Source: Candidatus Omnitrophota bacterium
GTDB taxonomy: Bacteria > Omnitrophota > Gorgyraeia > Gygaellales > Profunditerraquicolaceae
Length of the DNA stretch: 64,000 bases
Assembly: GCA_043812955.1 (NCBI GenBank)
Contig: JBDRLN010000012.1
Coordinates: 12,749 to 76,748 of the forward strand
Reading direction: 5' to 3'
Below, one piece after another: positions 17,703 to 41,348 of this stretch. Numbering within the stretch: position 1 is the first letter of the stretch; each line of letters starts with the position of its first letter. Made by a program: the position numbers and the translations under genes. Under the pieces are notes generated by a model, which did no database searches, had not been told where the DNA came from, and worked only from the letters and a program-made list of their open reading frames with translations.

Positions 17703-17710
17703 ACCTTTAT

Positions 17711-17764: not shown

Positions 17765-17785
17765 CTACCTACTACATACTGTCTT

Positions 17786-18181
17786 TTACCTCTTGGTCCA
17801 CTGGAAGCGTTTACGGGCGCCCTTCTGCCCGGACTTCTTACGCTCTTTCATCCTAGGATCACGGGTAAGAAAACCGTTTTTACGTAAAGTCTCTTTGAGC
17901 TGTGGCTCTGCCGACATTAAAGCCCTGGCTATTCCTAAACGGATCGCCCCGGCCTGACCGGCTAACCCGCCGCCCTGAATATTAGCCGCTACGTCATATT
18001 TTCCGGCGGTATTAGTTAATTCTAACGGCTGACGGACGATGATCCTGTCTGTCTCGCGGATAAAATACTCTTCAAAAACCCGGTGATTAACCGTAATCTT
18101 TCCCTTACCAGGAATAAGATATATCCTAACCTTGGCTTCCTTACGCCTACCTATTGCCGCATATTTTATAATATCGCTCAT
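17786..18181 (-). CDS. rpsI: 30S ribosomal protein S9
   Basis: GGGLAGQAGAIRLGIARAL and C-terminal KRFQWTKR; 131 aa. Confidence 0.9.
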   Translation of the reverse strand: MSDIIKYAAIGRRKEAKVRIYLIPGKGKITVNHRVFEEYFIRETDRIIVRQPLELTNTAGKYDVAANIQGGGLAGQAGAIRLGIARALMSAEPQLKETLRKNGFLTRDPRMKERKKSGQKGARKRFQWTKR

Positions 18182-18185
18182 ATTA

Positions 18186-18617
18186 TTATAATTTAATTAA
18201 CTCCGGTTTTTGGGCCGCATGTTTATGCTTGTCATCGGCATAAACATGTAATTTAGAAAACATAGCCTCGGCTAAAGCCCCCTTAGGCAGCATTCTTCTT
18301 ACTGCCAATTGGATCACAGTAGCCGGTTTTTTAGCCAACATCTGATCTAATACCACTTCCCGCAAGCCACCCTGGTATCCGGAATACCTGCGGTAGACCT
18401 TCTGCTTCAGTTTTCTTCCGGTCACCTTGATTTTTGCGGCATTAATTACGATCACCGCATCTCCCGTATCAATATGCGGGCTGTAAATAGCCTTATGCTT
18501 ACCCTTCAGTATACTGGCAACTTTACTAGCCAGCCTTCCTAATACCTTACCTTCGGCATCTATCAGGAACCATTTACAGATTATATCTTCTTTCTTGGGA
18601 ATATACGTCTTTTGCAT
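18186..18617 (-). CDS. rplM: 50S ribosomal protein L13
   Basis: KWFLIDAEGKVLGRLAS...KVYRRYSGYQGG; 143 aa. Confidence 0.9.
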   Translation of the reverse strand: MQKTYIPKKEDIICKWFLIDAEGKVLGRLASKVASILKGKHKAIYSPHIDTGDAVIVINAAKIKVTGRKLKQKVYRRYSGYQGGLREVVLDQMLAKKPATVIQLAVRRMLPKGALAEAMFSKLHVYADDKHKHAAQKPELIKL

Positions 18618-22275: not shown

Positions 22276-22382
22276 TCCACCCTACCCATTCCACCCCGTA
22301 GGTGGGCTCCACCCCGTAGGTGGGCTCCACCTACGGGGTGGACATGAAGGTTTAATATAGCCTAATTTAGCTTATTTGTCAA
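22276..22382 (-). promoter_or_regulatory. pgk promoter region: consensus promoter (TTGACA-17-TATATT) followed by three tandem 15-bp sites CCACCCCGTAGGTGG separated by GCT (third copy inverted); putative repressor operator array
   Basis: Sites at 22291-22305, 22309-22323 and 22327-22341 with a degenerate fourth upstream. The same motif occurs at 55600-55632 (gap) and 63695-63727 (DegT unit). Confidence 0.6.
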
Positions 22383-24662
22383 AGAAATTTTCTTAAAAGA
22401 AATAAGTAAAACTAGACTGCTCAGCTTCAATATTACTACTATCATACAAGTATTGAATAGCCCTAATATAGGTAAGAATATTACCCCGGTTAATATACCT
22501 GCCAGCCAACTTCCGGCTAGATCGGCAAAATATAGCGCCCCTGTCGCCTTACCTATATTACCATCTCCTTTAAGGTACAACTTAGCAGCCAAAGGAAATT
22601 CCATACCACAAAGCAGGCCGGATAATAAAAATAAGGATAAATAAATCCAATAATTATAGCGGGAATCCCGGATTATTTCCTGAGCCATAAACCAGGCTAA
22701 AAATAAGGAAAACAGGATAATTGCGGCTTCCAAACCCCAAAATGGCTTAAAACTATCCTTGATCTTTTTTAGCCCAGCAGTAATCAGCAGGCTTCCCGCG
22801 GCAATACCAGCCATAAACACACTGATAAGCAACCCTAGGGCATGATATACAAACCCATAATTAATCTGAAAACTAAAAATTAAAACTAAACTTATAAGCA
22901 TACTGGAGAATCCGGTCGTAGCTATACTATAGACAACAGCTGATTTCAAACAACCATCCCCTCTGGCTTTTAATAAATAAAATAGGATTATAGATATTAA
23001 TATAATTAATAATAACAAATGCTCTATTCTTAAACCATCAAAAAGGCCTAAAACGTATGCCCCCCGGGAAGAAAACTGTTTATTCCAAAAGATCAGCATC
23101 TCAAATACGGCAATAGGGGCTAAATCGCGGTTAATCCTAAAAGTCGCGCCAACAGAAGAATCTTTAAACCACTTAACCCAAACAGGATCAAGCCTATAAT
23201 CCAGATATCGCGGCAAAAGGAGATTAGTGAAGATATTTTGCTGGCTTAACTTATTAGAAATAACCTGGGAATCAACTTTTAAGATATCCGCTGAATCCGA
23301 GGCTAAATATATATTATAATCGCCAGGGATTATCCTGACATAGGAATAAGACTTATTAGCCGCGTTTAATATCGAATAATTGAGGTCCCTTAATTCCCGG
23401 CTCAAATAAGTTAAAGAACCGGGAAGGCTAAATCCCAGAATGCCCCCGGAATTAAGATGTTTCCGGCAAAGCTTAAAGAATTCATAGCTCAGATGTCGAT
23501 TTATGGATAAATCCAAAGGTTGGGAAAATCCGATTAAAATAACATCATACTTATTTTTACTATTCTTAAGAAAGAACGAGCTATCCTGATTAATAACCTC
23601 AACCCGGCTATCACCCAGTTCTTTCCGGGTTAAATCTGACGGGTATTTATTCAACATATCTATTAGCACTGGATCAAGCTCAACATAATCAATTTTCCTC
23701 ACCCCATGCTTTAGGATCTCATTGATCACTCCTCCCGCTCCGCCGCCTATAACCAGGATATCTTTAGGGCTCTTATTAAATAATAAAGGCAGATTAGCGA
23801 ATTCTTCGCTAAAGGCTATATCCGCAAAAGGAGTGGTAATTATAGGGATGCCGTTATAAAAAAAGGTAATTTGTCCCTGCCGCTCCAGGACTACGATATT
23901 ACCATATACTGAATTACGATAATCCAAAACCTTGCCTATACTCCATTGTTTCTTTAAAGAATTATTCTGCAGATAACTCGGGGATATAAAAAAGAATAAA
24001 GACGCGCCAATCAACAATATGAAAACCAGTAAATATCTTAATCTGGTATTGCTCAAGCTCCTAACTAAGACTATACAGACAAAAATATTTATGATTGAAA
24101 CCAGTAAAACCGCCTGGAATGAATTTAAATATGGTATTAATAAATAGGTCAGGATTATACCTCCGCTAACTGTACCGATAGTCTCCCAGGCATAAACTTT
24201 ACCTAAAATAACCGATGAATCTCTTTTGGTATAGGCGGAGATGATCTTGGGGCTTAAGCCGAATAATCCACCGTGGATAAAAGCCAGCGGAAAGATTACT
24301 AATAATGAAGACCAAAATACTATTGCTAAACTTATTGTCTCACCGAAAGGTAAACCAAAATAGAACTTAAATGTACGGGATAAATAGATGGACGCCGGCA
24401 GGAATAAAGAAAATAAAAGGTTTAAGATTATAAATACGGCTTGGGGATTCCGGAATTTATAAACTATCCTGCCGATAAGAAAAACGCCCAGGCCTTCAGC
24501 TAAAAGCCAGTTGCCTAAGATTATTCCTAAGATAAGCTCGTTTCCATAAAAACTAACCAACAACTCCCTTAAAATAAATACCTGGGCAATTATGCCGCTT
24601 AATCCTACCAACCCAATTGTGAAAAATAAAAAAATAGTCATTTTAATAAAAAAACCCGCCAA
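22362..24662 (-). CDS. spermidine/spermine synthase-family (aminopropyltransferase) domain flanked by N- and C-terminal multi-pass membrane domains
   Basis: Central VIGGGAGGVINEILKHGVRKIDYVELDP...SGGILGF matches the PABS-type methyltransferase fold; >14 hydrophobic helices on both sides; 766 aa. Confidence 0.6.
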   Translation of the reverse strand: MAGFFIKMTIFLFFTIGLVGLSGIIAQVFILRELLVSFYGNELILGIILGNWLLAEGLGVFLIGRIVYKFRNPQAVFIILNLLFSLFLPASIYLSRTFKFYFGLPFGETISLAIVFWSSLLVIFPLAFIHGGLFGLSPKIISAYTKRDSSVILGKVYAWETIGTVSGGIILTYLLIPYLNSFQAVLLVSIINIFVCIVLVRSLSNTRLRYLLVFILLIGASLFFFISPSYLQNNSLKKQWSIGKVLDYRNSVYGNIVVLERQGQITFFYNGIPIITTPFADIAFSEEFANLPLLFNKSPKDILVIGGGAGGVINEILKHGVRKIDYVELDPVLIDMLNKYPSDLTRKELGDSRVEVINQDSSFFLKNSKNKYDVILIGFSQPLDLSINRHLSYEFFKLCRKHLNSGGILGFSLPGSLTYLSRELRDLNYSILNAANKSYSYVRIIPGDYNIYLASDSADILKVDSQVISNKLSQQNIFTNLLLPRYLDYRLDPVWVKWFKDSSVGATFRINRDLAPIAVFEMLIFWNKQFSSRGAYVLGLFDGLRIEHLLLLIILISIILFYLLKARGDGCLKSAVVYSIATTGFSSMLISLVLIFSFQINYGFVYHALGLLISVFMAGIAAGSLLITAGLKKIKDSFKPFWGLEAAIILFSLFLAWFMAQEIIRDSRYNYWIYLSLFLLSGLLCGMEFPLAAKLYLKGDGNIGKATGALYFADLAGSWLAGILTGVIFLPILGLFNTCMIVVILKLSSLVLLISFKKISLTNKLN

Positions 24663-24904: not shown

Positions 24905-24932
24905 ATTATATGATTATCATCCCCTCTGTCAA
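24905..24932 (-). promoter_or_regulatory. near-consensus sigma70-type promoter (TTGACA, 16-nt spacer, TATAAT) directed towards the 22362..24662 gene
   Basis: Minus strand: TTGACAGAGGGGATGATAATCATATAATATAC. Confidence 0.45.
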
Positions 24933-25519: not shown

Positions 25520-25605
25520 GGGGCTGGTCATCAACAACTAAAATTACTGATTTGTCTTTGATCCTCTACCTCTTTTGAGTTTGACTTTTCAACATATTAG
25601 GGGTG
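25520..25605 (-). pseudogene. ~85-bp duplicated segment: 5' UTR + first 18 codons of the receiver gene at 31703-31790 (ATG mutated to ATC); forms the C-terminal tail of the glgP fusion ORF
   Basis: ggctggtcatcaacaactaaaattactgatttgtctttgatcctctacctcttttgagtttgacttttcaacatattag against 31703-31788: only two mismatches over 82 nt. Confidence 0.7.
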
Positions 25606-28481
25606 GCGCCTAGGGGAACGTCCCCGGAATACGCGCATGGAACATTCCAAATATCTTTTGCATATTCCCTTATTGTCCTATCACTTGAGAATCTACCTGA
25701 TTTAGCTACATTAATAATTGATTTTCTGGTCCACTCTTTCTTATCTGCATAAAGCTGGGAGGCTTTCTCCTGCTTTGCGCAATAATCATCAAAATCCGCG
25801 CAGACAAAGTAGCGGTCGCCGCAAAACAGGCTATTTAAAAGCGGGGAAAAAAGATTGGGTTGGTCCAGAGAAAAGAAATTATTCTGGATAAGCCCAATTA
25901 TCTCCTTAAGCACCATAGAGCGATTAATATAGTCCTGAGAATTATATCCGGATGCCAATATCTTCTCGATCTCTTCAAGCCTTAAGCCAAAAATAATAAT
26001 GTTGTCTTCGCCCACAGCTTCGGCTATTTCAATATTTGCCCCATCATAGGTTCCGATAGTCAGAGCGCCATTCATCATAAACTTCATACAGCCCGTTCCT
26101 GAAGCTTCGGTGCCTGCGGTTGAAATCTGCTCGGATAGGTCACTCGCAGGAATTATACGTTCCGCTAAAGTTACACGATAATTCTCCAAGAATATTACCT
26201 TTAATTTATCGCCAATCGCTTTATCGCTGTTCACTACATCCGCGATGCTGTTAATAAATTTAATTACAAGCTTGGCCATGAAATATCCAGGGGCAGCCTT
26301 ACCAGCAACAATAAAAGTCCTTGGGACAAGGCTTGCGCGCGGATTATTTTTAACCCTTAGGTACTGCGAAGCGATATAAAGCCCAAACAAAAATTGCCTT
26401 TTATATTCATGAAATCTTTTAACCTGTACATCAAACATAGAATCCGGGTTTACACGAATACCGGTACTTTCATAAATATATTCGGTGAGGTGTTTTTTGT
26501 TTGCTTTCTTTACCCCCTGCCAACTTTTGCAAAAATCACTATCATCTTTTAAGGTAGTAAGCTTTTCCAATTCGTAGAGATCAGTAACCCATTTATTACC
26601 GATTGCCGAAGTTATTAACTCAGAAAGGTGAGTATTGGATTTCTGCAGCCACCTTCTTTGGGTAATACCATTAGTCTTGTTATTGAATCTTTCCGGGAAG
26701 AACTCATAGAAATCCTTAAAGAGCTGTTCCTTAATAAGCTTTGTGTGTAATTCAGATACGCCGTTTATTGAGTGTGAACCGATTATAGCCAAATTGGCCA
26801 TACGGACTTTATTAGGATATCCCTCTTCAATAATAGACATCCTTCTTAGACGATCTGCATCTTGAGGATATCTTTTGGCCACATCTTTTAAAAAACGCAT
26901 GTTGATTTCATAAATGAGCTGCATATGCCTAGGCAGAAGACGCTCGAAACTCGGAACAGGCCAACACTCAAGGGCTTCTGACATTACCGTGTGATTTGTA
27001 TAACCAAATGTCCTCACAGCTATATCCCAAACAGTATCCCAATCTAGATTTTCTTCGTCAATTAAGATACGCATCAGCTCAACTATTGCCAAAGATGGAT
27101 GAGTATCGTTAAGTTGAATTGCTACTTTATCAGGGAAAAATTTAAAATCGGAATTGCCTTCTTTAAAACGACGGATAATATCCGCGATTGAGGCAGCGGT
27201 AAAGAAGTATTCCTGTTTTAAGCGCAGTTCCTTACCCTGGCTGCTGCTATCTCTGGGATAGAGGACCTTGGAAATATTTTCTGAAGATACCTTACTATAA
27301 ACTGCATGCTCATAATCACCTTCATTAAAATAGTTTAAATCAAAGTCAGCGCTGCTGCGCGCAGACCAAAGTTGCAATGTATTTACAATGTCAGTTTTAT
27401 ACCCTACAACTGGGATATGATAAGGTACCGCCAGAACATCTTCAGTATCAACCCATTTAACCCGCAACTTTCCCAATTCATCGTTAAACATGGAAGTGCG
27501 GCCGCCAAAACTTACCCTCACCGTACACTCAATCCTAGGAAATTCCCAGGGATTACCTTTATTAAGCCAAGCGTCAGGATATTCCGCCTGGTAACCATTT
27601 ATTATTTTTTGATTAAAAATCCCATATTCATATCGTATGCCATAGCCATGGGCCGGAATACCAAGGGTAGCCATCGAATCAAGAAAACATGCTGCCAATC
27701 TTCCTAAACCGCCATTCCCAAGACCCGCATCCTGCTCGCAGTCATACACTTCTTCAAGGTCAAGCCCCAATTCCTTAACAGCAAGTTTTGTCTCATTCCA
27801 TAGGCCTAAGTTAAGCATATTAGACCCAAGGAGGCGGCCAATTAAAAACTCCAAGGATAAATAATAAACTCTCTTTACGTTTTCTTTGTGGTATCCTTGT
27901 TGCGTATTAATCCAGCGCTCAATAAGCCTGTCTCTGATAGCGATGGCCAAAGCCATAAAATTATCATTAGGGGTTACGCTATACTGATCTTTGGCAAGCG
28001 AGTATTCGCGGGTAGCAAGAAATGAATGCTTGATACCATCCTTAGACATATCTTTGCCGATATTAAACCAAGAATTGACGTCTATTTTACTCTGCGGCAA
28101 GAATTTTATCCTAAGAAGAGATTTTATCCTGACAGAAAGCTCAGTCTTATCAAATGGCTTAGAAATAAAATCATCGCAACCTGCCTCTACCCCTTTAATC
28201 CTCTCTTCTTCTCCCGTTAAAGAAGTGATCATAACCACAGGCAAGGCTTGAGTCTCCTTTGTGGATTTTATCTTCTTGCATACTTCATATCCGTCAAGCT
28301 TAGGCATCATAACGTCTAATAGAATAAGATCCGGAGGATCTAAGGCCACCTTAGCCAGCGCTTCGCTTCCATTTACCGCCATTATGACATTGTAGCCGCG
28401 CGGGACGAGCAGCGCCTCGAGAAGTTCAAGATTCTTCGGTTCGTCGTCAACACAGAGAATCGTCAGCTTTTTATCGGTCAT
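25566..28481 (-). CDS. glgP: CheY-like receiver domain fused to glycogen/alpha-glucan phosphorylase
   Basis: The N-terminal ~130 aa (KKLTILCVDDEP...LILLDVMMPKLDGYEV...SKPF) is a receiver paralogous to that of 30777..31748. The remaining ~830 aa is a GT35 phosphorylase (AIRDRLIERW, EASGTGCMKFMMNGALTIGTYDGANIE, Lys-PLP region). ATG at 28481 has SD AAGGAGG. Confidence 0.85.
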   Translation of the reverse strand: MTDKKLTILCVDDEPKNLELLEALLVPRGYNVIMAVNGSEALAKVALDPPDLILLDVMMPKLDGYEVCKKIKSTKETQALPVVMITSLTGEEERIKGVEAGCDDFISKPFDKTELSVRIKSLLRIKFLPQSKIDVNSWFNIGKDMSKDGIKHSFLATREYSLAKDQYSVTPNDNFMALAIAIRDRLIERWINTQQGYHKENVKRVYYLSLEFLIGRLLGSNMLNLGLWNETKLAVKELGLDLEEVYDCEQDAGLGNGGLGRLAACFLDSMATLGIPAHGYGIRYEYGIFNQKIINGYQAEYPDAWLNKGNPWEFPRIECTVRVSFGGRTSMFNDELGKLRVKWVDTEDVLAVPYHIPVVGYKTDIVNTLQLWSARSSADFDLNYFNEGDYEHAVYSKVSSENISKVLYPRDSSSQGKELRLKQEYFFTAASIADIIRRFKEGNSDFKFFPDKVAIQLNDTHPSLAIVELMRILIDEENLDWDTVWDIAVRTFGYTNHTVMSEALECWPVPSFERLLPRHMQLIYEINMRFLKDVAKRYPQDADRLRRMSIIEEGYPNKVRMANLAIIGSHSINGVSELHTKLIKEQLFKDFYEFFPERFNNKTNGITQRRWLQKSNTHLSELITSAIGNKWVTDLYELEKLTTLKDDSDFCKSWQGVKKANKKHLTEYIYESTGIRVNPDSMFDVQVKRFHEYKRQFLFGLYIASQYLRVKNNPRASLVPRTFIVAGKAAPGYFMAKLVIKFINSIADVVNSDKAIGDKLKVIFLENYRVTLAERIIPASDLSEQISTAGTEASGTGCMKFMMNGALTIGTYDGANIEIAEAVGEDNIIIFGLRLEEIEKILASGYNSQDYINRSMVLKEIIGLIQNNFFSLDQPNLFSPLLNSLFCGDRYFVCADFDDYCAKQEKASQLYADKKEWTRKSIINVAKSGRFSSDRTIREYAKDIWNVPCAYSGDVPLGATPNMLKSQTQKR

Positions 28482-28597
28482 AATGCCTCCTTGAGCATCG
28501 ACCACAGTTTATGGTCGACTCACCAGACGCCGGTGTTTTTTAACTGGAAATGGCGTAACTCTTTGAAAGATAATGTAATTACGTGTATATGTAAAAA

Positions 28598-29980
28598 TTA
28601 TTCTAAATAAATATCTTTATCGCCCCTGATGCTCCCTCCTTTAATCTTACTGTGCAATTCTTCTTTAGACAACGCAAAAAGAGGGCTGATCTCTACTCTT
28701 ACCTGTGGCTCTACTTTAATTCCTGCATCATTGAGCCAATTTTTATACATGTTACTCAATATCTTTCTAACGGTTTCCGGGGAATCATCGCCCTGTTTAT
28801 TCTTCAGCGGAGCAAATTCTTCTTCGCGGGATATTTCCATACAGCAGGTGTTTTTCGCTAAAGGTATGGCGTCGAAAATAAAGGTTTCAAATTTCCATCC
28901 TTTGATTTCTGTGATTTCATCTTGCGCTCCAAATGAATCTAACATTTTAATAGCATGATGATACGGCAAAGCAAATCCGGACTCATTTAAACGCTGGATG
29001 AAAACTAGAGAAACCATATGTATTGCAGTATTACCCGCCCAATCGCGGATTTGCCCGTTATTATCTAAGATGCAGCGGTTATCCGAGTCTAACTCGCTGT
29101 ACTCAATAACTTTTGCCTTGCCATTTTCAGCGGCAAAGATCCCGACCTTTTCCTCACAGCTTCTGCGGCGCACTATTTTAGTAGACATTTCTGAATCTTC
29201 CATCTTATGATACCCGATGAAAACCGGATCCATTATCTTTACCAAGAGATTGTCGATCTGACAATAGAACAAATCGGAATATCCATCTTCAATTAGTTGT
29301 TTTAACAAACCGGAGTCACGCAACGCCTTGATACAACCACCGTGACCGTTTGGATTAACGAATAGATGAGTTTTGTCCTTTAAAATTAATTTACCATCTA
29401 CAGTTAAAGTAGGAAGCATCTCCTGCTCAAAGAAATGCACCGTTTGCGGATCGAGGGTAAAAAAATTATGGGTTTTAAAAAAGTCTTTTACTTCCGGCAG
29501 CATTTCCGTATCCGTCATTATCAGCAACGGAATAACAACTTTGTAGCGCAAAGATAAAGCCCTGACCGACTCGGCAAAAAGCTGGAATAAAGATTTGTTT
29601 TTTACGGGAGAAATCGGAAACATTCCTTTAGGGCCATTAAAACCTAAACGAGAGCCATGTCCTCCGGCTACGATCAAAACAGCTATCTTGTTCTTGGAGA
29701 TTATTGACTCACCCAATATGCGCGCCTCGTCCCTTTGCACTTGCTCATCAGAATCTTTAGGAATACTAAATATCGGTGATGGATAGATGTCTATGCGATG
29801 TTTGACGGGTAATTTTTGAACGGACGCCTTTTTATAAAGTGAGAAGACGAGCTCAAAATCAAGATTCCCGATTTCACCGATAAACTTTTCTTTCTCCAAA
29901 AGGCTTAACGACTGGTAATGCCTAAGAATATGGGTTTGGTTATATACTTTAAGCAGATTTAAAAAATATTCTTCTTTCAT
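28598..29980 (-). CDS. UDP-sugar pyrophosphorylase of the UDPGP family (UAP1/USP-like, eukaryote-type)
   Basis: VLIVAGGHGSRLGFNGPKGMFPIS matches the UDPGP nucleotide-binding loop (L-x-GG-x-G-T/S-R-L-G); 460 aa. Confidence 0.6.
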   Translation of the reverse strand: MKEEYFLNLLKVYNQTHILRHYQSLSLLEKEKFIGEIGNLDFELVFSLYKKASVQKLPVKHRIDIYPSPIFSIPKDSDEQVQRDEARILGESIISKNKIAVLIVAGGHGSRLGFNGPKGMFPISPVKNKSLFQLFAESVRALSLRYKVVIPLLIMTDTEMLPEVKDFFKTHNFFTLDPQTVHFFEQEMLPTLTVDGKLILKDKTHLFVNPNGHGGCIKALRDSGLLKQLIEDGYSDLFYCQIDNLLVKIMDPVFIGYHKMEDSEMSTKIVRRRSCEEKVGIFAAENGKAKVIEYSELDSDNRCILDNNGQIRDWAGNTAIHMVSLVFIQRLNESGFALPYHHAIKMLDSFGAQDEITEIKGWKFETFIFDAIPLAKNTCCMEISREEEFAPLKNKQGDDSPETVRKILSNMYKNWLNDAGIKVEPQVRVEISPLFALSKEELHSKIKGGSIRGDKDIYLE

Positions 29981-30033
29981 GGTTTACCTATCCGTATCGT
30001 CTAAAACCTTTAATCGCAGCATATTTTTTAAGT

Positions 30034-30738
30034 TTAATTATTATGAAGACTGTATGTTTTCATTAATAAAGCGTATTTAAAGGCGCCCTTACCCTGTATT
30101 TTAATCGGGACCCGCGGAGTCTCCTTGTTAACCCAGATCTCAAACTCATCGGGGATACTTTTAAAATGGTAAGCCTGGTATTTACCGGCAGGGACCGTTA
30201 TTTCATCTATTGAAACTAATTCTAATCTAAATTCAGCGGGGACTCTTATAGTAAAACTCCAGCCTATTTCAATATCAGGATGCCTGCGTATATAAAAAGG
30301 GATCAGGATTGTGTTCTGGATCGGGCTGCCTGCTTTGGTTATCTGCTCCTTTATTAATTTCACGCCTTTAAACTTCCTTGTTACAACTGTAAATTTCTGC
30401 TGGTCATATTCTTCTGTTATATATTCCTTACTCAAGAACCCGGAGATGGCGCGTTCTATCCTGTACGGCAATAAGCTTTCCGGGTCGCTATAAATTTTCT
30501 CCGTGTCCTCAAAAAAAAATACCTTAGTCTTAAACGTTACTAAATTAACCTTTACCCCGTTTAAATCAACCACCCCAAGGTCGTTATATTCTGATCTTCC
30601 AAAAGGGCTTATAAGATACGTTATGCTTTCTCCTGTATAATCATGACTGCCGGTTTCCCCCTTCAATAAATCATTGCCTGCAAAAACCATTAAAACTATC
30701 GCCGATACAATAAGTATTTTATTGATTTTCATATTCAT
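30034..30738 (-). CDS. secreted protein of unknown function (paralog of 33509..34222)
   Basis: Signal peptide; ~45% identity to the 33509..34222 product along the full length (DYTGE..YLI.P.G.SEY.D.G.VDLNGV...YDPES.LPY..ER...). Confidence 0.6.
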   Translation of the reverse strand: MNMKINKILIVSAIVLMVFAGNDLLKGETGSHDYTGESITYLISPFGRSEYNDLGVVDLNGVKVNLVTFKTKVFFFEDTEKIYSDPESLLPYRIERAISGFLSKEYITEEYDQQKFTVVTRKFKGVKLIKEQITKAGSPIQNTILIPFYIRRHPDIEIGWSFTIRVPAEFRLELVSIDEITVPAGKYQAYHFKSIPDEFEIWVNKETPRVPIKIQGKGAFKYALLMKTYSLHNN

Positions 30739-30776
30739 TTACCTTGGCAAATCTTGAGACTACATGCTTACATCTG

Positions 30777-31748
30777 TCATAAGGAGTGACCACCTGCTAT
30801 GGTAAGCCCAAGCAGTTCCTCCACTATTGAAACAAGCAAAGCGGATTGCTTAGAGACGCTATCAATTACTTTTTTTTGTTCCTCATTAAGAGCTCCGTAT
30901 GATCCATCCTGAAGTAATGATAGGTTTCCGTTAATCACTCCCAACGGTGTACGCAGTTTATGCGAAATAAGAGTTAAGGTATCCTGTTTTTGAAATTCTT
31001 CCGTGCGCGATAAGGTAACATCGCGTAAAACAAAAACAGTGCTTAATAGCTCTCCGGCTGAATTCTTTATCACATTCAAATTTACCTCTAAATATAATGC
31101 CTCTGTCGAATCGCTCTTTTGGCGCACTATATCAAATGTTTTATGCGTAATCGCTAAATCCATAAGAGCTTCTTTTTTTATAGAAACAGAATAATTCGTG
31201 AATAACTTTTCGACCAAATTAACATTCGCCGGATCGGTAATATTTAAATACTTTAAAATCTCCGCATTGCAATCTTTAATTAGATAATCCGGGGCGCAGA
31301 TTGCAATGCCATCGCTTACTTTATCAACCACTGCCTTAAATTTCTCCTTTTCCTCTAACTGCCGGCGGTAATAACTTATCTTGAGTATAGACTTAACTCT
31401 TGCTAATAGTTCAACCTTATCAACGGGCTTGGAGATAAAATCATCGCATCCTGCCTCAAGGGCTTTTACCTTGTCTTCGGTCTCCTTAAGTACGGTTACC
31501 ATTACCACCGGGATTTCCTTAGTCTTTTCGTCGGCACGCAAATTCTTGAGCACTTCTATGCCGGACATCTTGGGCATCATTACGTCCAGCAGAATCAGAT
31601 CGATTTGGTTATGGATAAGTTTTTCCAACGCTTCTTCACCGCTTGCCGCCTTGACAATTTCATAACCCTGCGGAACAAGATATGCTTCGAGAAGTTCAAT
31701 GTTTTGAGGCTGGTCATCAACAACTAAAATTACTGATTTGTCTTTCAT
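30777..31748 (-). CDS. receiver domain + PAS-like region + HisKA dimerisation/phosphoacceptor domain, no HATPase_c domain (Spo0B-like phosphotransfer protein or truncated hybrid kinase)
   Basis: Receiver KSVILVVDDQPQN...LILLDVMMPKMSGIEV...SKPV; H-box LISHKLRTPLGVINGN. The protein ends about 60 aa after the H-box and the next gene starts 39 nt later. Confidence 0.75.
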   Translation of the reverse strand: MKDKSVILVVDDQPQNIELLEAYLVPQGYEIVKAASGEEALEKLIHNQIDLILLDVMMPKMSGIEVLKNLRADEKTKEIPVVMVTVLKETEDKVKALEAGCDDFISKPVDKVELLARVKSILKISYYRRQLEEKEKFKAVVDKVSDGIAICAPDYLIKDCNAEILKYLNITDPANVNLVEKLFTNYSVSIKKEALMDLAITHKTFDIVRQKSDSTEALYLEVNLNVIKNSAGELLSTVFVLRDVTLSRTEEFQKQDTLTLISHKLRTPLGVINGNLSLLQDGSYGALNEEQKKVIDSVSKQSALLVSIVEELLGLTIAGGHSL

Positions 31749-31790
31749 CCTCTACCTCTTTTGAGTTTGACTTTTCAACATATTAGAAAC

Positions 31791-32156
31791 TCACTTAATA
31801 AACTGACTGACTTCTTTCGCAAAGGTGCGCGTATTTATCGGCTTGCCAATAAATCCGGAATTAGGTATGTCTTCTATCTCTTTTTTTCCTTCCGCCATAA
31901 CCGAAGCAGTCACAAAAACAATTGGGATACCGATTGTCTCTTTGTCTTCGCGCAATATTCTAGCAGCTTCGCTACCACGCATATCCGGAAGCCGCACATC
32001 CATAATTATGATATCCGGTTTTTCTCTCTTGGTAATGGCAATTCCATCGGTAGCATTTTCAGCTTCAAATACTTCAAAGCCAGCGACCTCCAAAAGGTCT
32101 TTTTCCAGCATCAGATTATTTCTATTATCATCGACAATTACAACTTTCTTCTTCAT
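31791..32156 (-). CDS. stand-alone CheY-like receiver (Spo0F-like)
   Basis: KKKVVIVDDNRNN...DIIIMDVRLPDMRGSEA...GKPI; ATG at 32156 preceded by AAAGGAGG. Confidence 0.8.
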   Translation of the reverse strand: MKKKVVIVDDNRNNLMLEKDLLEVAGFEVFEAENATDGIAITKREKPDIIIMDVRLPDMRGSEAARILREDKETIGIPIVFVTASVMAEGKKEIEDIPNSGFIGKPINTRTFAKEVSQFIK

Positions 32157-32157
32157 C

Positions 32158-33453
32158 TCAAACCTCCTTTCTTGAAGCAATGGGCAGAGTAAACTTTACT
32201 CCGGTCCCTTTATTTAGCCCTCCCGATTCTACAGAAAAATTCCCGCCGTGCAGCTCAACCAGTTTTTTCGAGAGCGGCAATCCCAGCCCTGTCCCTTCAG
32301 TTACCCGGGAATACGGAGTATCGACCCGAAAAAACCCTTCAAAGACTTTCCCTATGTTCTCCGGAGCGATACCGACTCCCGTATCCCAAACCTCTACTTC
32401 TATCTTAGAATCAACTTTCTTCGCCCGCATGCCGATTTTACCACCATCAGGGGTAAACTTGACCGCGTTGGAAAGGAGGTTGTAAATTATCTCTTTTATC
32501 TTGAGCTCATCCCCCTCAATATCTGGAAGGTCTTCGGCTATTTCAAGCAATATTTGAAGCTTCTTTTTACTGACCATATCCGCTACCAGCAGTGAAATCT
32601 CATTTAACAGGCTTTTCATAGGTAAGCTGGATAATGCCAGCTTCATCTTTCCGGATTCAACTTTTGCCATATCAAGTATCTGATTTATCAGTAAGAGGAG
32701 GTGTTTTCCGCTAGTTAAAATATTATTAATGTATTTTTTCTGCTTCTCGTTAAGCGGCCCGAAAGTCTCATCCCATAATATCTCAGAGAAACCGTTAATG
32801 GAGTTAAGCGGAGTCCTGAGCTCATGCGACATGTTGGCCAGGAACTCGGATTTTGCCCGGGTGGTACGTTTTAACTCGACGGCCAACTCCTGTAACTCTT
32901 TATGGGTCTTTTCCAGGCCTTTTTCTATCTCCCTGCGCTCGGTGATATCCTCGATAGCCAGAAGGATAACCCGCTCTTTACCCAGCACTTGTTTAATCTG
33001 CCGGGCATTCAGAAGCATTGTGCGCCTGCCAATGGTAGTAAAATCGTGTTCCACCTCATAGTTATCAAAGGTTGCTTTTTGGGGAAGGATGGTTTCCAGC
33101 AGTTCCCGCAGCTTGGGGATATTCCACTGTTTATTGCCCAGGTCATAAATAAGCTGCCCCACGGTCTCTTCAGGCTTTACCTTAAAGAATTCGTAGAAAG
33201 AACGGCTGACGGAGACCACCCTTAAGTCTTGATCCAGAGAAATCAAGGGTTCACGCACAGTGTTGATGATGCTCTCGGCGAATTCGAGGGCACCCTGAGC
33301 TACTCGCTCTGTTTTTTTACTTCCTTTAATTTCTTGGTGAAGCTGCTTGATAGTCTTTCTTCCTGGCACGGTGCGGATTTCTGCCCGATCCTGGATTTTT
33401 TTGGAGAATTTAATATTTTTCTTTTTATCTTTCATGGTTTCACCTCTATTCAT
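32158..33453 (-). CDS. cytoplasmic PAS-domain sensor histidine kinase
   Basis: PAS region (EPLISLDQDLRVVSVSRSFYEFF), H-box MSHELRTPLNSI, N/G1/G2 boxes (NLLSNAVKFT, DTGVGI, GTGLGL); 431 aa. Confidence 0.85.
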   Translation of the reverse strand: MNRGETMKDKKKNIKFSKKIQDRAEIRTVPGRKTIKQLHQEIKGSKKTERVAQGALEFAESIINTVREPLISLDQDLRVVSVSRSFYEFFKVKPEETVGQLIYDLGNKQWNIPKLRELLETILPQKATFDNYEVEHDFTTIGRRTMLLNARQIKQVLGKERVILLAIEDITERREIEKGLEKTHKELQELAVELKRTTRAKSEFLANMSHELRTPLNSINGFSEILWDETFGPLNEKQKKYINNILTSGKHLLLLINQILDMAKVESGKMKLALSSLPMKSLLNEISLLVADMVSKKKLQILLEIAEDLPDIEGDELKIKEIIYNLLSNAVKFTPDGGKIGMRAKKVDSKIEVEVWDTGVGIAPENIGKVFEGFFRVDTPYSRVTEGTGLGLPLSKKLVELHGGNFSVESGGLNKGTGVKFTLPIASRKEV

Positions 33454-33508: not shown

Positions 33509-34222
33509 TTAATTATTGCGGAGACTGTATCCTTTCATTAATAAAGAACAATTAACAATACCTTTAATTTTTATTTTAAGCGGAATTCGCGGGCTGCTTT
33601 TATCGATCCAGATTTCAAACGTATCAGGCACGCTTTTAAAATGGTAAGCTTGGAATTTTCCGCCCGGAACTATTATTTCATCTATTGAAATTAATTCTAA
33701 ATTAAATTTCACAAGTTTAAGTTCATTGAGGACCTTCGCGCTAAATTGCCAGCCTATTTTAAAGTCCGGTTGCTTACGCAGATAAAAAAGAAGCGTGTTC
33801 ATATTTTGAATCGGGCCGTCTGATTTGATTAGCCGCTCCTTTACTAACTTTTTGCCTTTGAACTTTTTTATTACAACTGTAAATTTCTTCTGATCGTATT
33901 CTTCTGTTCTATATTCTTTAATCCAAAGGCCTGAATTAGTGCGCTCTGTTTTATATGGCAACGAGCTTTCCGGATCGTAAAAAATCTTTTCCATAACTTC
34001 GACAAATAATATTTTACTCTTAAGCGTTACCAAATTCGCCGTCACTCCATTTAAATCAACCGTTCCACAATCTGTATATTCCGATTTTCCGATAGGTTCT
34101 ATAAGATATTGGATTCTTTCGCCGGTATAATCATAAATACCAGCTTCTCCCCTTAATAAATTATTATCACAAAGAATAATTAAAATTATTACCGATACAA
34201 TAATTATTATTTTAATTTTCAT
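33509..34222 (-). CDS. secreted protein of unknown function (paralog of 30034..30738)
   Basis: Signal peptide; paralogous as described for 30034..30738. The 3' flanks of both genes also share ttaattatt-gactgtat-tttcattaataaag. Confidence 0.6.
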   Translation of the reverse strand: MKIKIIIIVSVIILIILCDNNLLRGEAGIYDYTGERIQYLIEPIGKSEYTDCGTVDLNGVTANLVTLKSKILFVEVMEKIFYDPESSLPYKTERTNSGLWIKEYRTEEYDQKKFTVVIKKFKGKKLVKERLIKSDGPIQNMNTLLFYLRKQPDFKIGWQFSAKVLNELKLVKFNLELISIDEIIVPGGKFQAYHFKSVPDTFEIWIDKSSPRIPLKIKIKGIVNCSLLMKGYSLRNN

Positions 34223-35538
34223 ATTTTTGGGGTAGTCGTATCTTTAATCTTTAGGGGTTCTGTTTTCTGAAAACCGCCTTCGAGCACTGATGTAACTATG
34301 GATTTAATATAATTGCTGCAAATATCCCACTCCGCTTTCATGCGCCATTGAATGAGATACCGCGAACTATTTTTTTTGCCCAGAGAAACAGCTCTTCTTG
34401 ATCTAATTTTATCGTAAATCTCTAACGTATGTTTGGCGGCAGACATAATCGGGTATTTCTGTACCGTCATTCTTATGATCTGTTTTATGGTTTGTAACTC
34501 TTCAGGGGTTCGAGATAAAGTCCAGATAAGGGCATCAACAAAACTTTGCTGATCCATCTCATTGAGCAATCGCCCGTTGTGATAATCAACTACTACTTCC
34601 CGCGCTCCCGGAGCATTCAGCGCCACCACCGGAACTCCCGCTGCCATGGCTTCAATAAGAACTATTCCTTGTGTTTCGCTTAATGAAGCAAATGCGAAAA
34701 CATCCATGGCAAAATAAGCATCAACCAAATCCTGATAACGTAAAACCCCGGTTAAATGTAATCTTTTTTCAAGGCCAGCCTGTTCAAAGGTATCCTTGAT
34801 CAAATTTTGCGATGGGCCAAGGCCCACGATTAGAGCATGTACCTTTGGATCTTTTTTTAATAATTCAACCAGACAATTTGTCAGGAATACCAAATTCTTT
34901 TCCGGAGCCAGCCGACCGGCATGGCCAACCACTAAGGCATCGGGAGGGATCTGATGCTGCTCTCGAAAAGCAATTCCATCGCCTTTTGAAAAACGTTGTG
35001 CATCTATCCCTGTCGGAATAACCTCCATGGGAGTCTTAACGCCTCTTTTAAGTAAAATATCCTGTACGCTTTCGCTAGGCACGATTACCTGATCTACCAA
35101 ATTTGAATATCCGGCAGCAAGCTTGACCATAAATCTTTTCACTCCCTCATTTTGAACCGGCCAATCATGCACGTACTGCTCAAACATGCAGTGATAAGTA
35201 AATACAAGCGGTATGGCGTGCTGTCGACTAAGGCGTAGAGCAAAATCTCCCATGAAAAACGGGCCGTGGCTATGCACCATATCCGGCACAAATTCTTTCA
35301 TGTATCGCTTTAAGAGCCCAGAAATCGGAAAGTTAACGGAAAAAACAGTCCCGCCAAATTTTTGGAAAGCCGGAATCCGAATTACGCCTTGCTCCTCTTG
35401 CGGCGCGCCCCCAAAGGCCGGAGTAACAATCAAAACCTCATGCCCCAAACTTCTAAATGCCTCGCTAAAAGAATAAACCGATTGCTCTAATCCTCCTACC
35501 ATTGGAAAATAGGTATTCGTCATCATGAGAATATTCAT
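34219..35538 (-). CDS. family 4 glycosyltransferase (GT-B, diacylglycerol/sugar transferase-like)
   Basis: N-terminal MTNTYFPMVGGLEQSV and C-terminal E-x7-E region (ETQGIVLIEAMAAGVPVV) typical of GT4; 439 aa. Confidence 0.75.
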   Translation of the reverse strand: MNILMMTNTYFPMVGGLEQSVYSFSEAFRSLGHEVLIVTPAFGGAPQEEQGVIRIPAFQKFGGTVFSVNFPISGLLKRYMKEFVPDMVHSHGPFFMGDFALRLSRQHAIPLVFTYHCMFEQYVHDWPVQNEGVKRFMVKLAAGYSNLVDQVIVPSESVQDILLKRGVKTPMEVIPTGIDAQRFSKGDGIAFREQHQIPPDALVVGHAGRLAPEKNLVFLTNCLVELLKKDPKVHALIVGLGPSQNLIKDTFEQAGLEKRLHLTGVLRYQDLVDAYFAMDVFAFASLSETQGIVLIEAMAAGVPVVALNAPGAREVVVDYHNGRLLNEMDQQSFVDALIWTLSRTPEELQTIKQIIRMTVQKYPIMSAAKHTLEIYDKIRSRRAVSLGKKNSSRYLIQWRMKAEWDICSNYIKSIVTSVLEGGFQKTEPLKIKDTTTPKI

Positions 35539-37016
35539 TATTTATCTCCGCCTACCGTTGGACCGGCTTTTAGCTCTATAAGCGCTTTTCTCGCTGCCAC
35601 GCATATTGCTTCGTAAGAATTTTGCGCACCCATGGCCAACCCTTCCTTTTCTAGATCCTCAGTGAGAAGCGGCTTGCCGAATCTGACTCTAATCGGGTGG
35701 AGTTTGGGATACTTTGCCATACTGGGCCAGGCCTCATAAGCCCCTTCTATAGCTACAGGCACAAGCAACGCCCCTGTCTCCTTGGCTAAGATACCGAACC
35801 CTTTTTTAAATTTTCCGATTTTGCCGGTAGTACTACGCAACCCTTCCGGGAAAAAACACAAACCTTTACCGCGTTTTAATACTAAATAAGCGCTACGTAG
35901 CGCCTCCAGAAAATGCGTTGAATAATCAAAGGGAATAAGTCTCATCATCTTTACAAGATTCCTTAATAGGCGAGATTTTATAAACGGCCTAAAAAAATAC
36001 GGTATGAATAAGAAGTAAAAAAGCTGAAACACTGGCCTACGCGGCAGACTTGCGTTAATGGCCGGCCCATCAAGATCACTCGCGTGATTGGGATATAGAA
36101 TATAAGCTCCGACTTTTGGCACATTCTCTGCTCCTTCTGCCTTAATTCTGAAAAACAATCTACAAATCAAATAATCTATAGCTGTTACGCTAAATCGTAA
36201 CAGCCAGGCGGAAAAACCGGTACTGAATTCCAGCGCCCCCAAATGTTCTTCTTTCGGCAGGACTCGTAAATGTTTTTTCCAGTAGCCTGGTTCTAAAGGT
36301 AAACTTTTATCCTCCTCAGGGCGGATGCCTTTAGCTCCTTTCAACGCATCTGTTATTCCCAGGATAAGATCCTTTACAATAAAGGCTCTCGAGATTGCCT
36401 CGTCTTTTATATCAGCGTTAAAAGCTAACTCAAGGCACGAAGCCAGCTCTACCCTGCCTAATGAATCAATCCCTAAATCCAGCTCTAAAGAATCCTCGAG
36501 TATTATCGGTCTTCTAATACCAGACATCTTCTTTAAACATTCCGAAATTTTTATGCCGGTCTCGGATTCTATCAATAGATGGTCCGCAGCCGAAAGCTCT
36601 TCTAATACCGGGAGAGCGCCTTCTATTCCTGCTCTCACCCTAGGTTCATATATTTCTTTAACCGCATGTCTATCTAACTTGCCAAACAGATCATGCGGTA
36701 GCTCCTCAAGCGTAACAGTAAAACCTTTAAGCCTTTTATGAATAGGAAGCGATGGTGAGGCATTATCAAATCTCTCCTTAATGGCTAAATGCAGATTCAC
36801 TGAGGCGAATTTCCTGAATTCATCAAGATCCGGCTGAATGACAGCCCAAAGAACTTTCGATTTCCCTGCGCCTCCCATTCCGGAGACTGTAAAAACGCAC
36901 ATCTCCTTGACGGGTCCAGCCTTACTATAGAACTCCTCAATCTCTTCCGGGTAAATTTTCTTCTCCAAATTAACTATGATAAAATCTTTTAACCTAATCC
37001 TAAGGTCTTTTATCAT
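35538..37016 (-). CDS. acyl-carrier-protein-like domain fused to lysophospholipid acyltransferase (PlsC family), preceded by a vestigial AMP-binding C-terminal subdomain; N-truncated paralog of 50567..53311
   Basis: Phosphopantetheine site LDLGIDSLGRVEL; PlsC H-x4-D motif YPNHASDLDGP and FPEGLRS; N-terminus aligns to the last ~100 aa of the AMP-ligase domain of the 914-aa paralog. Confidence 0.7.
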   Translation of the reverse strand: MIKDLRIRLKDFIIVNLEKKIYPEEIEEFYSKAGPVKEMCVFTVSGMGGAGKSKVLWAVIQPDLDEFRKFASVNLHLAIKERFDNASPSLPIHKRLKGFTVTLEELPHDLFGKLDRHAVKEIYEPRVRAGIEGALPVLEELSAADHLLIESETGIKISECLKKMSGIRRPIILEDSLELDLGIDSLGRVELASCLELAFNADIKDEAISRAFIVKDLILGITDALKGAKGIRPEEDKSLPLEPGYWKKHLRVLPKEEHLGALEFSTGFSAWLLRFSVTAIDYLICRLFFRIKAEGAENVPKVGAYILYPNHASDLDGPAINASLPRRPVFQLFYFLFIPYFFRPFIKSRLLRNLVKMMRLIPFDYSTHFLEALRSAYLVLKRGKGLCFFPEGLRSTTGKIGKFKKGFGILAKETGALLVPVAIEGAYEAWPSMAKYPKLHPIRVRFGKPLLTEDLEKEGLAMGAQNSYEAICVAARKALIELKAGPTVGGDK

Positions 37017-39760: not shown

Positions 39761-39781
39761 ACTTATGTAAAATTTATCTTC

Positions 39782-41077
39782 CTAAGACGATGGGGCCTGC
39801 AACAACCCATGCTTGTCAGAGTTTAGCCTTATCCATTGCTTAATAATAAAATAACCCATGAAGCGAAAGATAGCATTTCTTAAGCGAAGCTTAAAGAGCA
39901 GTGAAATTGACCTGCGAAGAGAATAGAATTTAGTATATGCCTTAAGCACGCAAAGTTGTAATTCTTGGGCAGATAATAATTTTGGCTTAAAAACAATATG
40001 TTGGCCGTCATAAAAGCTCCAATCTTTGCTGAAAATCCTTTTTTGAGCTTCCAGTTCCTGATAAACTTTAGTCCCGGGAAAAGGAGTGAGGACTGCCATT
40101 TGAATGGTATCTATTTTATGCTTTATAGCAAACCTCAAGGTTTCCCAAACCGTATTTTTGTTATCATCTTCTCCTCCCAAAACAAACATGCCGTGGATTT
40201 TTATTCTTTTTTGATGAAAAGAGCGAATAGCATTAACAATTTCTTCGATGGTTTGGTTCTTTTGATAAGCCTTAAGAGTCCTGGGATTAATAGATTCAAA
40301 GCCTATACAGACAAGTTTACATCCTGCCCGAGCCATAAGATTTAACAGCCCATTATCTTTGGCAACGTCACAACGCACCTGGCAGCTCCAATTACTTATT
40401 TTATGTTTTAACAAAAGTTCCAATAAGCGCTTTGTACGTTTAGTATGCGCGGTAAAATTATCATCGCAGAAAAAGAAGGATTTTGTATTCCTGGATTTCA
40501 TTTCATTGACAATATTTTCAGCGCTGCGGAAACGGTATTTGCGGCCGAACATCTTTGTGACTGAACAAAAACTGCAATCAAAAGGACAGCCCCTGGAGGT
40601 AGAAATAGGGTGCAATGGAGAAGGCAGCTTAAATCCTTTAATCAATGAAAAATCCGGGATTGGCAGGATATCCAGGTCCGCAACCGGCTTACCAAAAACA
40701 ATCGGCTCTGTCCTTCTACCCTCAACCACATCAATGATAACCTCCTCAGCCTCTCCTACCACAACTTGTCTGGCAAACTCCAGCGCCTCATCAGGCATAA
40801 GACTTGCATGGACTCCGCCTATGATCACTTTTTCTTTAAGGAATCTTTTGGCTATTTCATAACCGCGCTTGGCTGTTGGAGTCAATATAGAAATACCGAT
40901 AAGATCCGCCTTTAAACTCGCATAATCAGGCGCAAGGATATTTTCGTTATATACCTCGACCTCATGACCCCTATTTTTTAAAATAGTCCCCAGATAAACA
41001 GGGCCCAATAAGGGCATGGGTATTTTACTATAGACATTTGCCTCGCACGCGCGAGGCTCAATAAGCACGATTTTCAT
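39782..41077 (-). CDS. B12-binding domain radical SAM enzyme (class B)
   Basis: N-terminal cobalamin-binding Rossmann-like domain, then CPFDCSFCS (CxxxCxxC) and a TIM-barrel region; 431 aa. Confidence 0.8.
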   Translation of the reverse strand: MKIVLIEPRACEANVYSKIPMPLLGPVYLGTILKNRGHEVEVYNENILAPDYASLKADLIGISILTPTAKRGYEIAKRFLKEKVIIGGVHASLMPDEALEFARQVVVGEAEEVIIDVVEGRRTEPIVFGKPVADLDILPIPDFSLIKGFKLPSPLHPISTSRGCPFDCSFCSVTKMFGRKYRFRSAENIVNEMKSRNTKSFFFCDDNFTAHTKRTKRLLELLLKHKISNWSCQVRCDVAKDNGLLNLMARAGCKLVCIGFESINPRTLKAYQKNQTIEEIVNAIRSFHQKRIKIHGMFVLGGEDDNKNTVWETLRFAIKHKIDTIQMAVLTPFPGTKVYQELEAQKRIFSKDWSFYDGQHIVFKPKLLSAQELQLCVLKAYTKFYSLRRSISLLFKLRLRNAIFRFMGYFIIKQWIRLNSDKHGLLQAPSS

Positions 41078-41165
41078 TTTTATAGTTTATTAGAGTGACC
41101 GTCTCTATATCAACTAACGCCCCCGCAAATCATTGGTGGGGGGCGCTAGCAAGAATATAATCCTC

Positions 41166-41285: not shown

Positions 41286-41316
41286 TTTTCAATCACCTCC
41301 TTCCGCAAAAAGCGTA

Positions 41317-41345: not shown

Positions 41346-41348
41346 ATT

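Follow-up and report, generated by a model that had tools for sequence, protein, structure and literature searches.

How a glycogen phosphorylase, a central carbon-storage enzyme, could come under the control of a two-component system is the question raised by one locus in a 64,000-nucleotide stretch of a Candidatus Omnitrophota assembly (GCA_043812955.1; contig JBDRLN010000012.1, positions 12,749 to 76,748), hereafter the window. A gene there, REC-GlgP, encodes a 971-residue response-regulator-type glycogen phosphorylase of family GT35 with an N-terminal CheY-like receiver, and it shares a strand with genes for a PAS histidine kinase, a single-domain CheY-like receiver and a REC-PAS-HisKA protein, RH, that has no ATPase domain (Table 1). 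From sequence comparison, we read REC-GlgP as a response regulator that has an entire glycogen phosphorylase for its output domain and is most likely phosphorylated directly by the kinase of its own operon, a reading that we hold with about as much confidence as doubt.

The open reading frame (ORF) of REC-GlgP comprises 979 codons (25566..28505, minus strand), and alignment with the orthologous protein clusters P0001–P0003 sets the true start at its ninth residue, M9, at 28481. The initial annotation, made from the letters alone, had described a GT35 phosphorylase of about 970 residues with an N-terminal receiver, which Pfam and TIGR02093 bear out over the full length. Its own caution that the N terminus might lack the residues of a receiver is answered by a Response_reg (PF00072) match at ORF residues 16–127 that scores 97 bits against a cut-off of 30, and by the presence of the active-site quintet: an acidic pair (DD), a Thr and a Lys accompany the predicted phospho-acceptor Asp56 (Asp64 of the ORF) in a domain of the PleD-like subfamily (NF007135, E 1e-44). 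The quintet is intact in all six fused copies inspected (those of the window, P0001–P0003 and the loci L102 and L105), within the motifs CVDDEP, LLDVMMP (LLDVTMP in two copies), VMITS and FISKP. On the enzyme side, the phosphorylase profile PF00343 is matched whole (1–713 of 713 positions; ORF residues 243–955; 1102 bits), the TIGR02093 score of 1179 bits exceeds its cut-off of 553, and the pyridoxal phosphate (PLP) lysine, Lys808 of the ORF, lies within EASGTGCMKF in a column at least 90% conserved in the phosphorylase alignment (A2).

At the junction, receiver helix α5 (...KSLLRIKF) runs directly into LPQSKIDVNSW, where unfused relatives begin MPQNKIEVNSW; on this alignment, the native GlgP N terminus is joined in frame to the receiver with no added linker, and a flexible tail covers approximately residues 124–146 of the 971-residue protein. 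An AlphaFold2 (AF2) monomer model (mean predicted local distance difference test score (pLDDT) 69, predicted template modelling score 0.62), of which only the fold of the receiver and the disorder at the junction were used, gives residues 7–123 a (βα)5 receiver fold of five strand/helix pairs with pLDDT of about 80–89, leaves residues 125–142 without secondary structure at pLDDT < 50 and places GlgP helix α1 at 147–161. Residue 27 of muscle phosphorylase aligns 23 residues past the receiver end, which together with the modelled tail puts the receiver where eukaryotic enzymes have their regulatory tail with Ser14.

Among the 120 best phosphorylase relatives, only the three clusters P0001–P0003 (953–954 aa) carry the receiver, and the next relatives, P0004–P0006, are unfused while remaining 86–88% identical to REC-GlgP. 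Neighbourhood look-ups added two fused genes, in L102 (93% identical to that of the window, receiver intact) and L105; six fused loci are known besides the window. The best matches of both REC-GlgP and RH are Candidatus Omnitrophota metagenome-assembled genomes, and the fusion is limited to a shallow clade of 6–14% protein divergence, a distribution that places its origin in a narrow Omnitrophota lineage. This rarity holds for the neighbourhood of this protein: a search of a 50%-identity representative library with query residues 1–320 returned only P0241, a fragment of the same fusion, within a top 150 flooded by multi-receiver proteins, and is a weak rarity test. The NCBI entry for the fused protein names it merely as a phosphorylase, and full-text literature searches returned no description of a receiver–phosphorylase fusion, in keeping with the initial remark that no precedent was known. 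Among the relatives compared, an 18–21-residue C-terminal extension of the window protein (25566..25630, minus strand; ...GATPNMLKSQTQKR) is shared only by the unfused P0004, and the other fused copies stop about 18 residues before its end.

So shallow a clade could also be read as a recent neutral accident at a variable insertion site after RH, with no regulatory meaning, and the varying gene content behind RH (p123, DUF3108, UDPGP or GlgP genes) fits that reading; in L105, an integrase-family transposase gene (rve_3) and a ParE toxin gene (16117..18451) lie just downstream of the module, consistent with a variable insertion zone. However, over four copies (dS 0.2–0.4 for the receiver figures, 0.2–0.56 for the comparison with the catalytic part), the ratio of non-synonymous to synonymous substitution (dN/dS) is 0.08–0.24 for the fused receiver, compared with 0.11–0.15 for the catalytic part, a sign of purifying selection on the receiver; no fused copy inspected has lost an active-site residue; and glgP is associated with the module in two independent arrangements. 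The neutral reading is thus disfavoured, and we consider it very unlikely. The strictly kept quintet and the purifying selection argue together for real phosphorylation of the receiver, and REC-GlgP looks like a genuine phosphorylation-controlled enzyme, as first proposed.

Where the phosphate might come from is suggested by the company that the gene keeps. Behind RH, the window reads RH-DUF3108-UDPGP-REC.GlgP-p123, L102 and L105 read RH-UDPGP-REC.GlgP-p123, L001 reads RH-REC.GlgP-p123 and L097 reads RH-REC.GlgP-PAS.GGDEF.PilZ, while the P0001 contig (and L096) reads PPase-UDPGP-REC.GlgP; the fused glgP is tied to the kinase/CheY/RH module in five of the six other fused loci. In sister genomes, unfused glgP genes join the same module at another position: between the CheY-like gene and RH, with products 86–88% identical, as kinase-CheY-GlgP-RH in L002 and as CheY-GlgP-RH-DUF3108-UDPGP in L103, and behind a CheY remnant in L098. 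P0007, the next GlgP relative outward (81% identical), is not linked to the module. That glgP occupies two insertion points in one operon argues that this lineage of GlgP is functionally tied to the module. Neighbour joining places the fused GlgPs and their CheY-linked unfused relatives in a single clade; clean monophyly of the fused copies was rejected because inner nodes have only 4–70% support. The remnant in L098 is an N-terminally truncated CheY-like gene (5287..5625; residues 31–128, 79% identical) just 5′ of the unfused GlgP gene, with a Na+/H+ exchanger gene in place of the kinase, and represents a decayed CheY-GlgP arrangement.

The module itself is conserved well beyond the fusion. 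Kinase, CheY-like gene and RH follow one another in this order wherever upstream sequence is present (L001, L083, L085–L087, L090–L092, L100–L102, L104 and L105), the CheY-like orthologues always standing between the kinase and either RH or GlgP; the exception is L002, where GlgP is inserted ahead of RH. In the window, the genes from the kinase to the lipoprotein p123 lie on one strand with intergenic gaps of 1–116 nt, within a region from about 20 to 46 kb in which all genes are on the minus strand; a promoter and terminator scan gave the same counts as shuffled sequence and provides no evidence on operon structure. The stand-alone CheY and the cytoplasmic PAS kinase that had been annotated upstream of RH are confirmed by their domains; the kinase has no hydrophobic segment and is predicted to be soluble, with a canonical set of His210 (in SHELRTPL) and a full HATPase_c domain. 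Its length varies, with one PAS domain each in the window (431 aa) and L105 (422 aa) and, as judged from recurring tblastn matches, two or three in the kinases of 534–746 aa elsewhere (L002, L100, L101 and L102). In most relatives the last gene of the module is that for p123 (70–87% conserved), directly after RH or, if present, REC-GlgP; its homologues hold this place in L001, L086, L087, L088, L092, L093, L100–L102 and L104.

An alternative is that the GlgP receiver takes its phosphate from a donor outside the operon, either another kinase or acetyl phosphate, or that it dimerizes or docks independently of phosphorylation, its position then reflecting only co-expression with glycolipid and sugar-nucleotide genes. 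The receiver relationships leave room for this. The initial annotation had called the receivers of REC-GlgP and RH close paralogs of 55–60% identity; the identity stands (56%, 63/112, over the domain core; 50% over 150 aa by BLASTP), the sister relationship does not. Small receivers of other, unrelated lineages are nearer to the GlgP receiver (59–67% identical) than either operon receiver, and a tree puts the GlgP receivers with P0246 and P0281, away from the clade of RH. By these measures, the two belong to the same PleD-like subfamily without being sisters (PleD is also the best PDB match of the neighbouring receiver). A recent duplication of the RH receiver was rejected on the 56% identity and the tree, and read-through from the upstream CheY gene on a 30% identity to the stand-alone receiver and the tree position. 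An outside donor would also suit the P0001 contig, where the fusion lies beside PPase and UDPGP genes only, and the presence of other sensor genes flanking the fused gene in L001 (a multi-PAS kinase) and L097 (a PAS-GGDEF-PilZ protein). Against it stand the active-site quintet, strictly kept under purifying selection, the placement of glgP in or beside this one module, at two insertion points, in five of six further fused loci and in three sister loci with an unfused gene, and the failure of any alternative kinase to recur. On balance, we judge an outside donor, or a receiver that works without phosphate, improbable.

Within the operon, the route of the phosphate depends on what RH does. RH was annotated as a receiver, a PAS-like domain and a HisKA domain that stops about 60 residues past its H-box (LISHKLRTPL) without HATPase_c, and Pfam agrees: beside Response_reg, there are a weak PAS_9 match (E 0.003) and a HisKA match of 45.7 bits (cut-off 26.9) that covers profile positions 2–60 of 66, and the protein ends 60 aa past His263, its stop only 38 nt from the next gene. 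A search by tblastn with three ATPase domains found nothing at 25–31 kb in any frame at E ≤ 10. RH is identical to P0121, an NCBI protein encoded on an 84-kb contig, and its 120 best clusters are 79–100% identical and 320–338 aa long, 75 of them exactly 323 aa; the family thus numbers at least 120 clusters, with REC and HisKA in 120/120 and HATPase_c in 0/120. The concern raised at the outset that RH might be a sequencing-truncated hybrid kinase was rejected, given at least 120 clusters of the same length and no ATPase remnant downstream or in shifted frames. Complete kinases with an RH-like receiver do exist, as in L003 (3478..5010; REC-PAS-HisKA-HATPase_c, with a receiver 85% identical to that of RH) and in L091, where a REC-HisKA-HATPase_c gene (1794..2906) is inserted between the CheY-like gene and RH; RH therefore probably arose from a kinase under receiver control through loss of the ATPase domain. 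The L003 locus came from a genome-contig scan with full-length RH, which gave no Omnitrophota locus and was swamped by generic receiver patterns; a metagenome scan with the PAS-HisKA part gave 13 loci, mostly short. L003 is a 5.5-kb contig labelled Nitrospirota, which could reflect mis-binning or transfer.

The initial annotation likened the locus to the Bacillus sporulation phosphorelay (KinA to Spo0F to Spo0B to Spo0A). Such a route would take phosphate in four steps from His210 of the kinase to the Asp of the CheY-like receiver, His263 of RH and Asp56 of REC-GlgP, and RH would act as Spo0B, ChpT or PhyT do. The four component types lie on one strand at gaps of 1–116 nt, the ATP-dependent kinase and its separate intermediate receiver are adjacent in every locus with upstream sequence, and RH, with neither an ATPase domain nor an acidic residue after its His, would not autophosphorylate and nonetheless keeps His263 in 116/120 clusters. 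Relays of kinase, single-domain receiver, kinase-like phosphotransferase and regulator are also known, as with PhyT (PMC5898713) and MrrA (PMC5964349). The His is not indispensable, however: of the 120 clusters, two (L102 and L104) have Ser and two (L103 and P0163) have Arg at this position, and every one of these codons differs from that for His by two nucleotides (CAT in the window, TCT in L102 and L104, CGC in L103). L102 is the telling case, as its gene order, the missing second DUF3108 gene excepted, equals that of the window all the way from patatin to p123, and a Ser263 RH coexists there with an intact REC-GlgP, so that phosphate would reach REC-GlgP, if at all, without the RH His. Moreover, RH has a receiver of its own with invariant D11, D12, D55, T85 and K107, needless in a pure phosphotransferase, and a family of at least 120 clusters far exceeds the fusion (three clusters plus L102 and L105), which argues that REC-GlgP is neither the ancestral nor the usual target of RH.

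Conservation within the dimerization and histidine phosphotransfer (DHp) region points the same way, with the catalytic-motif residues less conserved than the structural ones: P268, L269, G270 and G274 are present in 120/120 clusters, whereas the residue after the His is Lys in 114/120 and acidic in only 2, and the Thr four residues past it is found in 106/120. An acidic residue directly after the His is required in kinase chemistry and a Thr or Asn four residues later in phosphatase chemistry (10.64898/2026.02.27.708494). Judged by these patterns, RH is not an obligatory His relay, and we regard the four-step route as unlikely. In Spo0F–Spo0B, CckA–ChpT, SdrG–PhyT (PMC5898713) and MrrA–PhyK (PMC5964349), as here, a kinase, a single-domain receiver and a non-autophosphorylating DHp protein are encoded together. 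Spo0B, ChpT and PhyT keep a domain like the catalytic and ATP-binding (CA) domain and an essential His, whereas RH lacks any CA-like domain, carries a receiver and a PAS domain of its own and has lost the His in 4/120 clusters. A closer architectural match is the archaeal class of REC-PAS/GAF-HisKA regulators without HATPase, such as AF_1472 of A. fulgidus, for which a role in dimerization and protein–protein contact was predicted and of which none had been studied (Galperin et al. 2018, PMC5847659); the conservation of RH fits that view, and RH differs in being bacterial, extremely conserved within one phylum and fixed in a kinase-CheY-RH context. Its His-less variants would also be compatible, by analogy, with the use of DHp as a binding domain. 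Such use is familiar from the RetS–GacS heterodimers and from the DivL pseudokinase, which binds DivK~P, both RetS and DivL retaining, unlike RH, ATPase-like domains.

Returning to direct phosphorylation by the operon kinase, the signal flow and the effect on the enzyme that we infer would run as follows. The PAS kinase would autophosphorylate and donate phosphate directly to the operon receivers, including Asp56 of REC-GlgP; phosphorylation would alter receiver dimerization or docking; and the flexible segment of about 20 residues before helix α1 would pass the change on to the phosphorylase dimer, shifting how active it is or its oligomeric state. RH would be a kinase-dead, receiver-controlled dimerization or adaptor protein, perhaps a phosphatase or an optional phosphotransferase. 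The glucose 1-phosphate (Glc-1-P) released would probably go to the adjacent PF01704 nucleotidyltransferase, the weakest step, whose product would be a sugar nucleotide for the glycolipid pathway of the upstream GT4 enzyme. Several observations weigh against this scheme. The AF2 model, a monomer of mediocre quality, is silent on contact between receiver and enzyme; the partner of the GlgP receiver cannot be read from receiver similarity; the P0001 contig shows no kinase in the 0.7 kb present upstream of its fused locus; His263 is kept in 4/5 fused loci with RH visible, so that a relay is possible in the organism of the window, if not the conserved logic of the system; and the PF01704 protein is much nearer to enzymes for UDP-N-acetylglucosamine (UDP-GlcNAc), which weakens the channelling step.

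The response regulators CheB (a methylesterase), PleD/WspR (diguanylate cyclases) and RpfG (HD-GYP) likewise place an N-terminal CheY-like receiver with the quintet in control of a C-terminal enzyme in one chain. Their outputs are signalling enzymes, whereas that of REC-GlgP is a central-metabolism GT35 enzyme of about 820 aa; and its connector is the flexible N-terminal tail of the enzyme itself instead of a dedicated helical linker, an arrangement found in one shallow Omnitrophota clade only. Response regulators with enzyme outputs are known, and a GT35 output at the end where eukaryotes place their phospho-switch is a new variant. Animal glycogen phosphorylase is switched between its b and a forms when phosphorylase kinase phosphorylates Ser14 in the N-terminal tail. 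In both cases, a phospho-dependent element sits at the extreme N terminus about 20 residues before helix α1, in animals a Ser in a disordered tail and in REC-GlgP a predicted Asp phosphorylation, by a histidine kinase, in a folded 120-aa receiver; the resemblance would be one of convergence, not homology. In a bolder version, which we put forward tentatively and trust less than direct phosphorylation as such, the receiver Asp would switch GlgP on or off at the Ser14-equivalent, dimer-interface end, a convergent covalent phospho-switch through which the PAS kinase would release glucan on demand for the sugar nucleotides of envelope glycolipids. The GlgP of E. coli is reportedly regulated by HPr of the phosphotransferase system, which likewise ties a bacterial GlgP to His/Asp-type phosphoryl-transfer signalling; unlike the receiver of REC-GlgP, HPr is a separate protein that binds non-covalently, without the involvement of a receiver domain.

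Control of bacterial glycogen phosphorylases is, to our knowledge, attributed mainly to gene expression, metabolites or HPr, and covalent phospho-control is seen as a eukaryotic invention. If our reading is true, a two-component system would act post-translationally on such an enzyme, and the receiver-fused GlgP would offer a compact testable system of one kinase and one enzyme. The kinase/CheY-like/REC-PAS-DHp trio is an Omnitrophota-wide module that supplies a natural receiver-controlled DHp protein without an ATPase domain, and its fixed place behind a glycolipid gene cluster hints at the regulated target in a phylum without a cultured model.

Table 1. Coordinates of REC-GlgP, its functional sites and the neighbouring genes in the window
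Feature	Position	Strand	Basis or remark
p123, predicted lipoprotein, 123 aa	25111..25482	(-)	lipobox LSSC; no Pfam match
REC-GlgP, response-regulator-type glycogen phosphorylase, 971 aa	25566..28481	(-)	Pfam, NCBIfam
GT35 phosphorylase catalytic region	25641..27779	(-)	PF00343, TIGR02093
PLP lysine codon (Lys808 of ORF)	26082..26084	(-)	
Fusion junction and flexible tail	28038..28112	(-)	junction codon L136 of ORF, 28098..28100; fused/unfused alignment
Receiver domain of REC-GlgP	28125..28460	(-)	Pfam Response_reg, E 9e-28
Predicted phospho-acceptor codon (Asp56)	28314..28316	(-)	
PF01704 nucleotide-sugar pyrophosphorylase	28598..29980	(-)	Pfam, E 1e-40
DUF3108 protein, second copy	30034..30738	(-)	N-terminal hydrophobic segment; 60%-identical paralogue of 33509..34222
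RH, REC-PAS-HisKA, 323 aa, no ATPase domain	30777..31748	(-)	Pfam
RH His263 codon	30960..30962	(-)	
RH Asp55 codon	31584..31586	(-)	
CheY-like single-domain receiver, 121 aa	31791..32156	(-)	Pfam; phospho-acceptor Asp codon 31998..32000
PAS-HisKA-HATPase_c histidine kinase, 431 aa	32158..33453	(-)	Pfam, NCBIfam
Kinase His210 codon	32824..32826	(-)	
Conserved lipid/glycolipid cluster upstream of the trio	33509..42560	(-)	Pfam; similar order in relatives
DUF3108 protein, first copy	33509..34222	(-)	N-terminal hydrophobic segment; precedes kinase
GT4 glycosyltransferase	34219..35538	(-)	best NCBIfam match monoglucosyl-diacylglycerol synthase, below cut-off
PP-binding/acyltransferase protein	35538..37016	(-)	Pfam/NCBIfam
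GtrA-TM protein, 915 aa	37013..39760	(-)	Pfam/NCBIfam
B12 radical-SAM protein	39782..41077	(-)	Pfam/NCBIfam
Patatin-like lipase	41349..42560	(-)	Pfam/NCBIfam

The metabolic end of the scheme turns on the UDPGP-family gene. Its position between the two receiver genes and its PF01704 superfamily membership stand as annotated, with the second DUF3108 gene also lying between them; its assignment to UDP-glucose does not follow, as in the PDB it is closest to UDP-GlcNAc pyrophosphorylases (from 2e-74 for 8yp3 to 4e-39; AGX1 at 7e-62) and matches UDP-glucose pyrophosphorylases at 3e-12 or worse. The idea that it channels Glc-1-P to UDP-glucose is therefore uncertain and is kept here as a hypothesis. 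Recurrent proximity supports a metabolic link of some kind, the PF01704 gene adjoining the fused glgP in L102, L105 and the P0001 contig, where an inorganic pyrophosphatase (PPase) gene is also present, and sharing a cluster with the unfused glgP in L103. Omnitrophota metagenome-assembled genomes have been reported to encode glycogen synthesis (PMC8542988).

On the long contigs (L002, L100, L101, L102, L104 and L105), the trio is always preceded by a patatin/GtrA-TM/acyltransferase/GT4 cluster similar to that of the window, usually with DUF3108, sometimes with a B12 radical-SAM or DUF3185 gene and with a GtrA-TM protein of about 900 aa. Its gene content suggests a locus for membrane glycolipids or lipid remodelling that has a signalling module of its own, and the fixed position of the trio beside it suggests that the module primarily serves envelope lipids or glycolipids, not glycogen metabolism. 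The DUF3108 gene follows RH, instead of preceding the kinase, in L100 and L104, and L103 has an orthologue of the 30034..30738 copy after RH. A gene pair for an AMP-binding/PP-binding/acyltransferase protein (914 aa) and an alpha/beta-hydrolase (50567..54084, minus strand), directly downstream of RH in L002, is separated in the window from the kinase by about 17 kb and from RH by about 20 kb, which suggests that the lipid locus has been rearranged.

Beside the gene gap (54525..55577) stand two tandem GalT-like HIT-family genes (55649..56653 and 56770..57810, minus strand; GalP_UDP_transf, DUF4921 and DUF4931), possible hexose-1-phosphate nucleotidyltransferases or phosphorylases of relevance to Glc-1-P handling. 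Two patatin genes flank a second two-component set of ordinary type (43518..46081, minus strand), which comprises a 314-aa HisKA-HATPase_c kinase, a REC-GerE regulator and a protein made up of a receiver only. Downstream of the module, a perfect sigma-70 consensus (TTGACA, 16 nt, TATAAT) at 24905..24932 on the minus strand, 5′ of a gene for a 766-aa spermidine-synthase-like membrane protein (22362..24662), may mark where the next transcription unit starts.

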